Source: Candidatus Thorarchaeota archaeon (GTDB lineage Archaea > Asgardarchaeota > Thorarchaeia > Thorarchaeales > Thorarchaeaceae). From it: a stretch of 40,719 nt of DNA. The notes below the pieces were generated by a model. It searched no databases and was not told where the DNA came from. It saw only the letters and a list, made by a program, of their open reading frames with translations. Below are positions 24,551-30,157 of this stretch, piece by piece. The stretch spans positions 1 through 40,719 of the forward strand of contig PRDH01000030.1 of assembly GCA_003345545.1 (NCBI GenBank). Direction: 5' to 3'. The stretch's first letter is position 1. Every line of letters starts with the position of its first letter. Made by a program: the position numbers and the translations under genes.

Positions 24551-24898
24551 CTACTGTCTTGGAGCCCATGTATCAAGGCAATCTTGAACCACCGAAACGT
24601 ATGAAGCCGCTGGTCCTCCGCCCATGACAACGGCAACTGAGCAAGCCTCCATTACTTCCTCCCGCGTTGCTCCAAGGGTGAGCGCCTGCTTGGTATGGTA
24701 GACGATGCACTCCTCACAGGGAGATAGAACCGATGCCACGATGCATATGATCTCCTTGAATTTGGCAGAGAGTTTTCCGTCCGTATGTACTATCTTCTCA
24801 AGGTCTGTGAAAGCATTCCTGGTATCAGGGATATCTCTGTTCAGGGCGCCAAAATGCTTCATGAAGCTCTTCAATGTCTTCTCAACATCATCTGTCAT
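24551..24898 (-). CDS. AhpD/carboxymuconolactone decarboxylase family protein
   Basis: DGKLSAKFKEII, CEECIVYH (CxxCxxxH), GATREEVMEA, MGGGPA. Confidence 0.88.
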   Translation of the reverse strand: MTDDVEKTLKSFMKHFGALNRDIPDTRNAFTDLEKIVHTDGKLSAKFKEIICIVASVLSPCEECIVYHTKQALTLGATREEVMEACSVAVVMGGGPAASYVSVVQDCLDTWAPRQ

Positions 24899-24913
24899 TG
24901 TTTTATTCCTCGA

Positions 24914-25717
24914 CTACGGCGCAAATGTGGCTGGCGTTCCCAAGTTCCATGAGGGCTGCGTGTATTGTGAATGATATAAAGCCTGTGCAGTATCGATTTC
25001 GCTCTCTGTGGCATGTCCCTCTTTGATTGTGGCTCCTGCCGTTTCTTCCAGCGTTTCGATAATCGCTGCCTGTATCTCATCTGATGATGGACCGTTCTCA
25101 ACTTCGAAACTGATTTTCGTGACCGTGTCATGCTTGCTGTCCATACATCGGATTCTTGTCTTGTCTCTGAGATAGGATTGTTGCCGCTCTGGCGGAGTAA
25201 GACATCTCTGAAGCATATCCAGATCTGAATCGATGAGCAGCGTGCCGTGAATAAACGAGACACCTCGCTTTATCCATCCTGCAGTGCCTGAGATCTTCCT
25301 CCCATCGATTCTGATGCATGAACCCACGGTATCAAACTTGGCTGGAATGTTGAGTGAAACCAGACTCTGTGTCACTATTCCTATGAATGCACGATAGAGT
25401 TCCTTCAAGCCCCTAGGGACATATGGGTGCGATTGATGAAGTCGAAGCGCGAAGTTGAGATTGCCCATATCATGGAATACCGCTCCACCACCTGTGAATC
25501 TTCTGGCAATGGATATGTTGTTATCTCTGCAATACGCTAGGTCAACCTCTCTGTGCACACATTGAAATCTCCCAATCACGACTGCCAGCTGGGATCTCCA
25601 GAATCGAATCGTGTTGAGGGTGTTGTTCTCTCTGAGTTCGGTCTTGGCTATGGCTTCATCCATAGCAAGATTGGAGTAGATATCAAGACCATGGTCATTT
25701 AGTAGTCGCCAAGACAT
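24914..25717 (-). CDS. lplA: Lipoate-protein ligase A family (catalytic domain)
   Basis: NLAMDEA, VVIGRFQ, RRFTGGGAVFHD, RKISGTA, HGTLL. The real start is probably MSWRLL at 25717, not the upstream extension in the ORF track. Confidence 0.88.
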   Translation of the reverse strand: MSWRLLNDHGLDIYSNLAMDEAIAKTELRENNTLNTIRFWRSQLAVVIGRFQCVHREVDLAYCRDNNISIARRFTGGGAVFHDMGNLNFALRLHQSHPYVPRGLKELYRAFIGIVTQSLVSLNIPAKFDTVGSCIRIDGRKISGTAGWIKRGVSFIHGTLLIDSDLDMLQRCLTPPERQQSYLRDKTRIRCMDSKHDTVTKISFEVENGPSSDEIQAAIIETLEETAGATIKEGHATESEIDTAQALYHSQYTQPSWNLGTPATFAP

Positions 25718-25772
25718 ACCGGACCAATGGCTACTATCTCTCATTAATCTGTTGTAGAATAGTGGTATAGCA

Positions 25773-25948
25773 GGCAGAAAGTAGAGCCGATGGCCGAAGG
25801 AAGTTGCTCGCCATCGGCGAAGCGCCTCAGAGCAACAGGTGAGGCAGAGCAGATGTCGTATTCGAGGCTTGGCACGATTGATTCGTGCAATGATGAAGTG
25901 TCGCTTCCTTAATTTAAGGTCCACTTGACTCAGAAGCAGTCTTCTGCC
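25773..25948 (+). ncRNA. Candidate structured RNA with a kissing-loop pseudoknot (family unknown, strand inferred)
   Basis: Hairpins GCCGATGGC/GCCATCGGC and GCCTCA/TGAGGC whose loops GTTGCTC and GAGCAAC are perfectly complementary; further hairpins; ends GGCAGAA/TTCTGCC can pair. Confidence 0.5.
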
Positions 25949-26017
25949 ATTGAATCTCAATTGGCGCAGAGGGTGGGAATCAATAGCGATGTTCCAGTGA
26001 GCATCAGAAAGAGTAGT

Positions 26018-26195
26018 GAGGTTGATTCTGAAAAGAGCATCCAAAGAACGAAACCATTTAGAAGCCAGATGTTTCGTTTTGGGAAACGAACTTCTCCACT
26101 CTCAGTGTGAGGACTTCGTTGACTGTGCAAACTATGACATGGTGTGTCCAAGAGATGCAATTCGATGAAAACATCCGTGTGGACTTTCGGGACAT
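26018..26195 (+). pseudogene. Decayed FixX-like ferredoxin remnant
   Basis: EVDSEKSIQRTKPF [frameshift] ARCFVLGNELLHSQCEDFVDCANYDMVCPRDAIR*KHPCG. This is CxxCxxCxxxCP with two Cys codons changed by one base each (TTC, TAT), and TGA at the conserved Trp position. Confidence 0.5.
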
Positions 26196-26213
26196 CCCAA
26201 AGAACGGATTGAA

Positions 26214-26525
26214 TTAGATGTTATTGCCGCACTCTGGACAAGAACGGGCTCCTGGTCTTACAGAAGTCCCGCAGTAGGGACATGATCTTATTTCTTCTAT
26301 TGGGGCGTTCAGGACAAATCTTCCAGATTTCCTGATGTTATAGAGACCCCCCTCATCTGCATACATCTCGGTGTACCCACAGTCCGCGCATGTGAAGGCT
26401 TCAACGGTTGCAGTTGGTAATCCCGGAAGATCTATTGCCAAGTGATATCCATCACCGCTATGCATCTTGTGTGGACCCGCGATTCTTCTGCTGCCGCATT
26501 TCGGACACTGTTTTGAGTGAATCAT
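26214..26525 (-). CDS. Double zinc-ribbon protein
   Basis: CPKCG...CADCGYTEMY and CPYCG...CPECG. Confidence 0.8.
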   Translation of the reverse strand: MIHSKQCPKCGSRRIAGPHKMHSGDGYHLAIDLPGLPTATVEAFTCADCGYTEMYADEGGLYNIRKSGRFVLNAPIEEIRSCPYCGTSVRPGARSCPECGNNI

Positions 26526-26592
26526 AACTCATCGTACTAGACTGAGTCATGAGGGCAAATAATTCTTCGCAGCAGTCAATCTATTGTGAAGG

Positions 26593-27840
26593 CTACATCT
26601 TCATCATGAATGGGCTCTCGAGGGTGTCTTTCAGGGCTGCTAGGAACAGGCCTGCTGGAGCTCCATCCAACACCCGATGGTCAACTGCACAACTGGCCAT
26701 CATCATTGACCTGATTGCTATCGTGTCATCAACCACAACTGGCTTTTTCTTAATCTGTCCGAGTGCCAGAATGGCGGTTTCTGGTGGATTAATGACTGGA
26801 ATGAACAAGTCCACCTGAAACGGTCCCAGGTTTGACACTGTGAAGGTGCTGCCAGTAAGTTCCTCTGGAGTGAGTTCGTTGCTCTTCGCCTTCTTTCCCT
26901 TTTCCTTCGTTTCAATGGCTATCTCAGTGATTGACTTCTTATTTGCATGTCTGACCGTGACCACGATGAGGCCCTGGTCGGTTGCCATAGCCACGCCAAT
27001 ATTGATATCATCGAATATGATGACGTCATTGCCAGAGAGAGTGGCATTGAATCTTGGAAACTTCTCTAGGGTGTCTGCGACAGCCTTGACGATAATGTCG
27101 TTGAAAGAAACCTTGATTCCATGACTTTTCTCGACTCTCTTATTGAGGTCTTCCCTTAGAGCTGCAGCTTCAGTCATATCAATCTCAGTGATCATGGTGA
27201 TGTGAGGATTCTGAGAACTCTGCGTCATTCTTCTAGCGATGGTCCTTCGAAGAGGGGTGAGTGTTTCAACCATGCGAATCTTCCGTTCATCTAGCACTGT
27301 GACCTGAGTGGTCGCACGCTTCCTTGCAGTCAGATCCTCTTCCACGATTCTCCCATCTGGACCCGTGCCCATCACAATTGATAGATCGATGCCCAGTTCC
27401 TCAGCCTTCTTCTTGGCTCTGGGTGACGCCCTGATTTTCCCTCCTGGAAGACGAGAGAGAGCATACTGTGGCTTTGTCTGAGTGGCTAGAGCTTGTTTGG
27501 CAGCTATACTGCTTGGCACTAGTATCTTTGCTGGAGTGGCAGCAGTTGTTGCAGCGTTTAGCTTCTTCGGTCGAGTATCAGGGATTGCTTCTCCTTCTTT
27601 ACCGATGAATGCGATTGGCTCACTTATCGGGATTTCATCATTGACATCACAGAGAATCTTAAGGAGGATTCCGTCATCCGGCGCTTCAAGTTCGAACTCG
27701 TTCTTCTCTCCGAAAATTTCGACAACCGCGTCGCCTTTCCTGACCTCGTCGCCTTCCTTCTTGAGCCACTTGAGTATCACACCATATTCCATGGCAACAC
27801 TCATTCGCTGCATGATCATGGTCGTGACCATCGTATTCAC
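26593..27840 (-). CDS. Dihydrolipoamide acyltransferase E2 of a 2-oxoacid/acetoin dehydrogenase complex
   Basis: Lipoyl domain (WLKKEGDEV...EK...LEAPDDG), subunit-binding domain ASPRAKKKAEELGIDL...GTGPDGRI, catalytic DHRVLDG. Confidence 0.93.
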   Translation of the reverse strand: MNTMVTTMIMQRMSVAMEYGVILKWLKKEGDEVRKGDAVVEIFGEKNEFELEAPDDGILLKILCDVNDEIPISEPIAFIGKEGEAIPDTRPKKLNAATTAATPAKILVPSSIAAKQALATQTKPQYALSRLPGGKIRASPRAKKKAEELGIDLSIVMGTGPDGRIVEEDLTARKRATTQVTVLDERKIRMVETLTPLRRTIARRMTQSSQNPHITMITEIDMTEAAALREDLNKRVEKSHGIKVSFNDIIVKAVADTLEKFPRFNATLSGNDVIIFDDINIGVAMATDQGLIVVTVRHANKKSITEIAIETKEKGKKAKSNELTPEELTGSTFTVSNLGPFQVDLFIPVINPPETAILALGQIKKKPVVVDDTIAIRSMMMASCAVDHRVLDGAPAGLFLAALKDTLESPFMMKM

Positions 27841-28815
27841 CTACATGATATCTCTGATTGCTTGTGCGATTCTCTTGTTATCAGGAATGAAGTAGTTCTC
27901 AAGAGGCGGACTAAAGGGTACTGGTGTATCTGGTGCATTGACTCTCTTTATGGGCGCATCGAGCCAGTCAAAGGCCTCCTCTTGAACAATGGCTGCGATC
28001 TCAGCAGTGGTTGCTCCTGTCTTTGTTTCCTCTGTGACAAGCACTAGCCTGCCTGTCTTCTTGACGGACTCGATGAGCGTCTTGGTATCAAGGGGAACGA
28101 GTGTGCGCGGGTCAATCACTTCTACGCTTATTCCTTCCTTCGCTAACTCGTCAGCGACTTCCAGTGCCTTGTGGAGCATGAAGAATGTACCCCAGAGTGT
28201 GACGTCCGCTCCCTCTCTTCTAATCTTTGCCTGCCCGAATGGAATGAGGTACTCCCCGTCAGGCACTTCTTCTTTCTTGTCATATACGAGCTTGTGTTCA
28301 GCGAAGAGCACAGGATTGGGGTCTCGTATCGCGGTCTTGATGAGCCCCTTTACATCTGAAGCAAAGGCTGGCACTGCCACCTTGAGTCCTGGTGTGTGCA
28401 TGAACCATGCCTCTAGACTCTGAGAGTGATGGGACGCGATGTTCTTGCCTCCGCCAAAAGGTGTTCTTAGGACCAGTGGGACTGATGTCTGTCCTCCGAA
28501 CATATAGCGCATCTTTGCAGCTTGGTTGCATACTTGATCCATGGCCAGGGCAATCAGGTCTCCGAACATGATTTCTGCAATTGGTATCAGCCCAGTGATA
28601 GCAGCACCAATTGCTGCGCCTACGATTGTGTTCTCTGAGATTGGGGTGTCTCGTACTCTGACCTCACCGAACTCCTCTGCGAGTCCCTTCGTCACTTTGA
28701 AGGCCCCGCCCCAGTTTAGAGCGATGTCCTCCCCAAGGAGAAACACACGCTCGTCACGAAGCATCTCTTCTCTGATTCCCGCCTTGAGAGCATCCCTATA
28801 GGTCATCTCTGTCAT
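27841..28815 (-). CDS. 2-oxoacid/acetoin dehydrogenase E1 beta subunit
   Basis: GEDI, VRDTPISE, AEIMFGD, HHSQSLE, VIDPRTLVPLD. Confidence 0.93.
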   Translation of the reverse strand: MTEMTYRDALKAGIREEMLRDERVFLLGEDIALNWGGAFKVTKGLAEEFGEVRVRDTPISENTIVGAAIGAAITGLIPIAEIMFGDLIALAMDQVCNQAAKMRYMFGGQTSVPLVLRTPFGGGKNIASHHSQSLEAWFMHTPGLKVAVPAFASDVKGLIKTAIRDPNPVLFAEHKLVYDKKEEVPDGEYLIPFGQAKIRREGADVTLWGTFFMLHKALEVADELAKEGISVEVIDPRTLVPLDTKTLIESVKKTGRLVLVTEETKTGATTAEIAAIVQEEAFDWLDAPIKRVNAPDTPVPFSPPLENYFIPDNKRIAQAIRDIM

Positions 28816-29790
28816 TCAGGGCACCTCCGCGTAGACGTCTTCTAGGGCCTCTTCAGGGCTCGGATATTCCGAGTTCTTGGCGAATTCTGCAGCCTTGTCA
28901 ACTTCCTTCTGAAGAGCAGCACGGATCTTCTCGGCTTCCTTTTCAGTGATAGCGCCCTGTTCGATGGCAATCTTCTTGATGATTTGAACAGCATCCCTTT
29001 CAGGGCTGAGCCAGCGATCCGCCTCCTCCTGAGGTCGGTACTTGGCTGGATCGAATCTTGAATGGCCTTTCATTCTATATGTCTGGCACTCAATCAGAGT
29101 GGGGCCGCCACCCTCCCGTGCTCTCTTCACAGCTACTTGGGTGGCCTCATAGACCTCTAGCGCATTGTTACCATCCACTACGCCACTCGGAATGCAGTAC
29201 CCCTCTGCTCTTTGGGCTATTGTTGCACTCGGGCATGTCATCTTGATTGGTGTGCCCATTGCATAGAAATTGTTCTCCACAATCCAGACAAGGGGAAGCT
29301 TCCAGATTGCTGACATATTCAGCGACTCGCCGAATGTACCATTGTTTGAGGCGCCGTCACCGAAGAAACATACAACGACATCGTCTGTCTTCCTAATCTG
29401 ACAGGAGAGAGCTGCACCCACTGCAATTGGCAGACCTGATGCAACCACACCTGTCGCGCCAAGTACACCAACGTTGAACTGTGTAATGTGCATGGAACCT
29501 CCCTTGCCCTTGCACGAGCCTGTCTTCTTTCCGAGTAGCTCTGCGAGGGCTAAATTCATGTCCGCACCTTTTCCGACGACATGTCCATGTCCTCTGTGCG
29601 AGCTCTGAATCCAGTCCGTATCTTTCAATGCAGTAGTCACTCCAGCAGCAACACCCTCTTCTCCAAGATACAGATGAAGTGTGCCAGGCACAATATTCTC
29701 TCCAAAAAGGTTCCAAACTTTTTCCTCAAAGAGTCTGACTTTCAGAGTCCTCGTGTATAGCTCCTTGAGCGTCTTCTTGTCAATCGCCAT
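28816..29790 (-). CDS. 2-oxoacid/acetoin dehydrogenase E1 alpha subunit (TPP-dependent)
   Basis: GTLHLYLGEE, HRGHGH, GKGGSMH, FFGDGASN...ENN TPP motif, TYRMKGH. The start MAIDKK at 29790 is preferred. Confidence 0.93.
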   Translation of the reverse strand: MAIDKKTLKELYTRTLKVRLFEEKVWNLFGENIVPGTLHLYLGEEGVAAGVTTALKDTDWIQSSHRGHGHVVGKGADMNLALAELLGKKTGSCKGKGGSMHITQFNVGVLGATGVVASGLPIAVGAALSCQIRKTDDVVVCFFGDGASNNGTFGESLNMSAIWKLPLVWIVENNFYAMGTPIKMTCPSATIAQRAEGYCIPSGVVDGNNALEVYEATQVAVKRAREGGGPTLIECQTYRMKGHSRFDPAKYRPQEEADRWLSPERDAVQIIKKIAIEQGAITEKEAEKIRAALQKEVDKAAEFAKNSEYPSPEEALEDVYAEVP

Positions 29791-30157
29791 CGTCTGCTCA
29801 CAACCTAATGATGACCAAGCGCTTAGTGCCGGCCTCCTCGAATCTGAGTGATAAAGCCTTCGAATTGGCATAATGCCATTTCCTGATTTTGGCAGATGTA
29901 TGAGCAAATATGTGTGCTCACATACACAATGATGGTAATATTCGAGTTGTGCAGGAGAAGCGATAGGGATGTGGAATCTCTGACGTTGCGATAGAAGCGA
30001 TATGTCGGAAAAGGATTGGATTGGATGTCCGCATCCCTCAATTCTTTCTCATTTCATTCATTTCACTCCAAGACTTCTTAACCCGATCTGAGCTTCTCTG
30101 ATTCGTGAGTGATTCACCAGCATGCTCGACGCTGAGTGTATCTAGGAGCGTTTCCCG

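Follow-up and report, generated by a model that had tools for sequence, protein, structure and literature searches.

The gap between lplA and a zinc-ribbon gene of a Candidatus Thorarchaeota archaeon very probably holds a genuine RNA gene that is uncatalogued, family-wide and encoded on the minus strand, with expression predicted. We analyzed a stretch of 40,719 nucleotides (contig PRDH01000030.1; hereafter the window) together with related genomes. As far as sequence comparison reaches, this shows the strand of the element, three covarying hairpins, a core between the first two of them (P1 and P2), a TATA box at a fixed distance and independence from lplA. As to its role, we propose tentatively, with a little less than even confidence, that it is a stand-alone gene for a small regulatory RNA predicted to act in trans by antisense pairing.

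A covariance model of the element, R1, matched positions 25783-25892 with an E value of 2.8e-26, the one copy in the source genome. By BLAST, the region was present in 26 of the 27 genomes of the source genus, and among the 85 genomes of the family R1 gave 63 credible matches and a second model, R2, gave 67, with one further R2 match at E 0.36 lying beyond these 67. The RNA was found in 11 of the 16 genera of this Ca. Thorarchaeota family, nearly always in single copy, and is missing at intact loci in several near-complete genomes. No match came from 124 Asgard genomes of other families, which were searched with the covariance models under stricter filters and include incomplete genomes. When genome and viral contigs were scanned with patterns, the named contigs bearing the element were those of Ca. 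Thorarchaeota; other matches reached at most 18.4 bits with the model, the scan patterns being too loose, and a search of sequencing runs returned one partial match of 38 nt at low identity. The RNA belongs to no known Rfam family: Rfam 15, which covers the lysine, cobalamin, FMN and TPP riboswitches, SRP RNA and RNase P among others, gave no match to it at the gathering score, a looser threshold returned only whalefall-1 (E 5), outside the element, and eight loci from other genera had no match up to E 1. Searches of papers found no published description of this RNA. An earlier sequence-only reading of this stretch had suspected an uncatalogued structured RNA here, and the Rfam result agrees with it.

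Across the family the element follows one plan: TATA box, P1, near-invariant core, an optional P2, P3 and a pyrimidine tail (Table 1). Conservation of the structural type is limited to 25786-25888 among the 28 homologues of the genus, a block flanked by two short conserved motifs. We placed the probable ends of the RNA from the promoter spacing and the pyrimidine tail.

Table 1. Features of the RNA gene and its surroundings (positions in the window).
Feature	Position	Strand	Basis or remark
Structured small RNA	25786..25888	-	~103-110 nt, ~105 bases; R1 match; 67/85 family genomes
P1, 5' hairpin	25872..25888 (25888-25883 with 25877-25872)	-	Covariation
Near-invariant core, candidate seed	25847..25868	-	CCUCGA, variable spacer of 1-6 nt, GACAUCUGCUC (25857-25847)
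P2 hairpin, loop with K1 GUUGCUC (25836-25830)	25824..25845	-	Covariation
P3 hairpin, loop with K2 GAGCAAC (25809-25803)	25786..25818	-	Covariation
Potential 7-bp loop-loop helix K1/K2	25803..25836	-	Specific to source genus
Putative RNA promoter: TATA box TTAAATT (25917-25911) and conserved BRE-side flank (25922-25918)	25911..25922	-	Promoter function predicted
Pyrimidine-rich tail, likely transcription end	25776..25785	-	C+U content
lplA, lipoate-protein ligase catalytic domain	24914..25717	-	PF21948
Separate lplA promoter, predicted: TTAAT box 30 nt before ATG, leaderless geometry	25743..25754	-	Box spacing
Double zinc-ribbon gene	26214-26525	-	Pfam; upstream neighbour
E2 acyltransferase	26593-27840	-	Pfam; upstream neighbour

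The strand was read from the stems of the 28 homologues, which on the minus strand comprise 837 Watson-Crick cells, 33 G-U cells and 1 A-C cell. On the plus strand those 33 cells become A-C mismatches, so the RNA is assigned to the minus strand, which is also favored by the folding z score (-3.58, against -2.04 for the plus strand). Within the genus nine pairs have changed on both sides, a number reached by none of 500 shuffles: two of five in P1, three of six in P2 and four of nine in P3, where one pair shows four standard types. Slid controls dropped to 31-47% paired. Family-wide, in an alignment fitted to the model, both sides have changed in 18 of 23 pairs and in all five pairs of P1; these covariation counts ignore kinship among the sequences. 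The same data bear on whether the block might be a regulatory array in the DNA, made of operator palindromes and a promoter, and not a functional RNA. Such an array would fit with a TATA word that can be read on the plus strand as well, but the 33 G-U cells against a single A-C cell, the compensatory changes next to loop lengths that vary freely across the family, and the loss of whole hairpins while the core stays make it very unlikely.

The sequence-only reading had drawn a plus-strand RNA of ~180 nt with a K-turn and two mutually exclusive 5'/3' folds, possibly the leader of a ferredoxin-like remnant. Every pairing in that model can indeed be drawn in the source genome: the stems 25786-25794/25810-25818 and 25824-25829/25840-25845 are there, the loops 25803-25809 and 25830-25836 are exact reverse complements, and the hairpins at 25872-25888 and 25907-25919, ATGATGA at 25890-25896, TTGA at 25925-25928 and the segments 25773-25779 and 25931-25936 all occur. 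The homologues, however, retain neither the strand nor the length of that model. Of the two arms of the supposed switch, GGCAGAA and its 3' partner are each present in 1/28; the box C motif (RTGATGA, 2/28) falls within the promoter spacer on the non-transcribed strand; and the hairpin 25907-25919, also 2/28, has the minus-strand TATA box as its right arm. What had been taken for the 3' part of the RNA is, on this comparison, promoter DNA. A box C/D sRNA or K-turn RNA was rejected, the transcribed strand having no conserved boxes. The remnant itself (plus strand, 26016-26168), a decayed CxxCxxxCP-like motif, finds no support in Pfam and no counterpart in related loci; it lies in a 265-nt stretch, 25949-26213 of the window, that is private to the source genome. 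Together with the strand asymmetry, this leaves the plus-strand model scarcely credible.

Upstream of the RNA, the first T of the TATA box stands 28 nt before the first base of P1 in 26 of 29 parsed loci of the genus and 29 nt before it here. Other genera have a G at +28 in 28/36 loci and an unconserved spacer. TTAAATT also precedes tRNA-Gly and sits upstream of the 23S gene in the source genome. At the other end, the C+U fraction of the tail is 0.74 in 39 loci of other genera and weaker, 0.59, in the source genus.

Gene calling can conceal the element: a naive ORF call from the TTG at 26044 stretches lplA across it and would hide the RNA gene. The gene truly begins with the ATG at 25717. Followed upstream from there, the lplA frame stays open across the RNA at one locus of 27, that of the source genome, and all three phases occur; a coding extension of lplA was rejected on that count. 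A TATA-like box stands 30 nt before the lplA ATG in 10 loci and 56 nt before it in 10 others, and the TTAAT word peaks at -30 genome-wide (11 versus a background of 2.1). One genome of another genus, G029, is without the RNA, yet retains the lplA promoter motif of its genus.

The RNA appears to be a stand-alone gene, because a convergent gene lies 23-60 nt past its 3' end in five genomes (four of genus g10 and G068), because G036 (93% complete) keeps the RNA while only LplA paralogues of ~30% identity, and no lplA orthologue, were found there, and because in seven genomes the lplA orthologue is not preceded by the RNA. In four of those seven, E2, with or without the zinc-ribbon gene, reaches up to lplA. 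Zinc ribbon and E2 form the usual but not obligatory upstream context of the RNA, and we read its adjacency to lplA as inherited gene order.

These loci also decide how much weight a minus-strand riboswitch or attenuator can carry. Such a leader of lplA and the following CMD gene would bind a ligand (lipoate or a thiol cofactor) at the core, and a choice between P2 and an alternative helix would set read-through at the pyrimidine tail. Its main argument is that the lplA start lies 38-138 nt downstream of the RNA in most loci. The alternative helix, which joins the first half of the core to the 3' arm of P2, could form in 96% of cells; it is also the minimum free energy fold of the source copy as a single sequence, where it occludes some of the core. 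Aptamers typically have invariant junction bases, which counts for the same side. Yet the gap widens to 284-696 nt in three genera-level cases, the position expected of a riboswitch is contradicted by the convergent genes and by G036, and lplA appears to own a separate promoter. No conserved expression platform emerged: the switch arms occur in 1/28, the alternative helix, unlike P2, shows no covariation, P2 itself is missing in four genera (g5, g6, g10 and g36), and pairing of the core with the lplA start (-8.5 kcal/mol) has no excess over controls (-7.8 kcal/mol). We therefore regard an lplA leader, one of the roles first suggested for this stretch, as improbable; another, a standalone ncRNA, gains from the RNA's own TATA box and its comparative independence from lplA. 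In one genome, G083 (L257:2441-2536), the 5' arm of P2 is deleted and the core is left enclosed by the alternative hairpin.

The wider neighborhood on the minus strand (24551-29907) comprises genes for E1-alpha, E1-beta, E2, the zinc ribbon, lplA and a CMD/AhpD-like protein, in an order conserved across the family; no E3 gene follows E2 in this cluster. In G013 (C21, L372:368-7040) an insert of 6.4 kb, with a TnpB/Cas12f-like gene (PF07282) at its end, interrupts a first copy of the RNA gene at a direct repeat of 7 nt. A second copy, intact and preceded by a TATA box of its own, lies directly before lplA; the disruption of the first has thus left one intact copy in place. The same two junctions occur on separate contigs of G016 (L373/L374).

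The part of the RNA that defines the family is the core GACAUCUGCUC, not the kissing loop, and the sequence-only reading overlooked it. The core does not vary in 28 sequences of the genus and is near-invariant across genera. Three positions inside the seed vary, by A>G or C>U, changes that would keep pairing to a fixed partner through G-U, a weak hint of antisense function. K1 is similar to the 3' end of the core, and the P2 loop of genus g3 holds a near-exact second copy of the core; we suggest on these grounds that a duplication of the core probably gave rise to P2. A degenerate copy before lplA in G035 (L303:1270-1440) retains the TATA box, P1 and P3 and has an altered core, a loss-of-core variant.

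A core this constant might instead be a protein-binding site, the stand-alone RNA, with the same strand and ends, serving as an RNP scaffold or decoy (for example for Sm/Lsm proteins). This reading, which we hold to be rather unlikely, draws on a core that is near-invariant in 11 genera without a conserved partner in rRNA, lplA starts, lsm or the exact-match sites, on the mostly single copy number, and on the ability of the 5' half of the core to fold into a stem of 3 bp capped by a variable loop. It is weakened by the finding that no cognate protein gene travels with the RNA, and by the absence of the RNA from intact loci of several near-complete genomes, which argues against an essential RNP; it would also make the conservation of the tbp leader, described below, a coincidence.

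The kissing loop fared differently from the core. Neither K1 nor K2 differs among the 38 distinct sequences of the genus, while the loop bases beside them (2-3 and 8-9) vary freely at near-fixed length, which shows, on alignment evidence, that these 14 bases are under selection; the pairing itself is potential. No covariation was seen for K1/K2 in the genus alignment, and because none of the seven pairs ever varies, pairing is indistinguishable from sequence constraint. The helix first noticed in the sequence is strictly conserved within the source genus but shows no compensatory change and is absent from other genera; the stems do covary. Elsewhere the longest loop-loop helix has at most 4 bp, and the loops are mostly C/U-rich, many with CCUC or CUCC. 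The window contains the loop-loop pattern, chosen post hoc, a single time, where 0.01 occurrences are expected. With only 5 nt separating P2 from P3, a kiss would require the two stems to be packed alongside each other, or it could be intermolecular.

In the antisense mechanism that we favor, TBP and TFB would start transcription at about 25888, transcription would end in the pyrimidine tail near 25780, and the end hairpins would protect the RNA. The single-stranded core, joined in other genera by the C/U-rich loops, would pair in trans with purine-rich translation-start regions and so block 30S loading. The K1/K2 kiss would be a later, genus-specific addition, K1 resembling a repeat of the seed end and K2 the seed target, and may lock or compact the RNA.

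The best candidate target in the source genus would be the message of tbp, which encodes the TATA-binding protein. In a scan of the start regions of 2,428 called genes, tbp ranked first and was one of only two with a perfect match of 10 nt; its leader and start codon, AGAGCAG-AUG, complement ten core bases, with the predicted start site upstream of them. Pairing of at least 9 bp is found in 17 of 23 orthologues of the genus, and three tbp changes at -3 are C>U and remain paired via G-U. Positions -7 to -1 of tbp are 89% conserved. Of five control genes, four score 38-61% there and the remaining one 85%, the stretch being its Shine-Dalgarno motif. The tbp gene was picked post hoc after the scan and the related genomes are not independent. 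The site is missing in 26/26 tbp matches from other genera, though the core is unchanged there, and start regions with 10-nt core matches are no more numerous than chance predicts (139 of 300 shuffles yield as many). Conservation of the leader could also serve tbp's own regulation. Across the family, the TATA boxes of tbp promoters (L436:2490-2545 in G000:C3; L437-L487) are stacked or palindromic, which suggests that TBP regulates its own gene, and the source genome has two tandem TBP paralogues on C26. The tbp pairing, predicted from complementarity, is a testable lead, not a result, and we consider unlikely the full scheme in which the RNA masks the tbp start codon and represses TBP translation, the kiss gates the seed and feedback runs through the RNA's own TATA promoter.

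A search of 40 genomes for exact complements of the core, with 60 sites examined, pointed to no shared gene, and no target common to the family appeared among the sites examined. Several individual candidates were rejected. A role as rRNA guide rested on an 8+3 bp match to a 23S helix that is no better than shuffles (64-109 of 150 reach the best duplex) and is broken by the 23S variant of G014. A match to the 5' part of RNase P RNA overlaps that RNA's own P1 helix, a 12-nt match upstream of a thiolase gene is unconserved (the gene was found in 8 of 41 genomes), and synonymous changes disrupt the pairing at the lsm start in RNA-bearing genomes.

The element would represent an old RNA gene, shared across its family, in the Asgard archaea. 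These are the prokaryotes most closely related to eukaryotes, and little work has been done on their regulatory RNAs. It has changed in a modular way around a fixed core: four genera have lost a hairpin, most have C/U-rich loops and one has a 7-bp kiss. If true, the tbp reading would mean post-transcriptional RNA control of a core transcription-initiation factor.

Kissing loops occur in several known RNAs, among them the SRP Alu domain and the purine, lysine and cobalamin riboswitches. The Thorarchaeota RNA resembles these in having two neighboring hairpins with complementary loops, but it has no Rfam match to them and its kiss is confined to one genus. SRP RNA, which in archaea spans ~300 nt and has a helix 8 motif, was rejected, 36 of 38 relatives holding a separate full-length SRP gene; the source genome, a 93%-complete assembly, gave no match to RF01857, its SRP RNA being probably unassembled. 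RNase P RNA was located elsewhere in the source genome. Set beside trans-acting antisense RNAs, the comparative evidence points to a promoter and an end independent of the neighboring genes, and to a seed-target match with tbp that is present in the source genus and not in other genera, with the match count at chance. In the RsaE-type C-rich-motif sRNAs of Staphylococcus and Bacillaceae, conserved unpaired pyrimidine-rich motifs pair with ribosome binding sites (PMC2790875). The loops of other Thorarchaeota genera carry CCUC, CUCC and UCCC motifs, but RsaE is bacterial and shows no homology; in the source genus K1 and K2 occupy the loops, and what is invariant is another sequence, the 11-nt core. 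The archaeal sRNA162 of Methanosarcina mazei has no sequence or Rfam similarity to our RNA, and a loop-loop helix is not part of the abstract describing it (PMC3510493); its pairing was shown experimentally, whereas that of the Thorarchaeota RNA is predicted. Although the Thorarchaeota RNA is a member of neither the sRNA162 nor the RsaE family, we infer that it works most like these two, the archaeal sRNA162 (PMC3510493) and the bacterial RsaE (PMC2790875).
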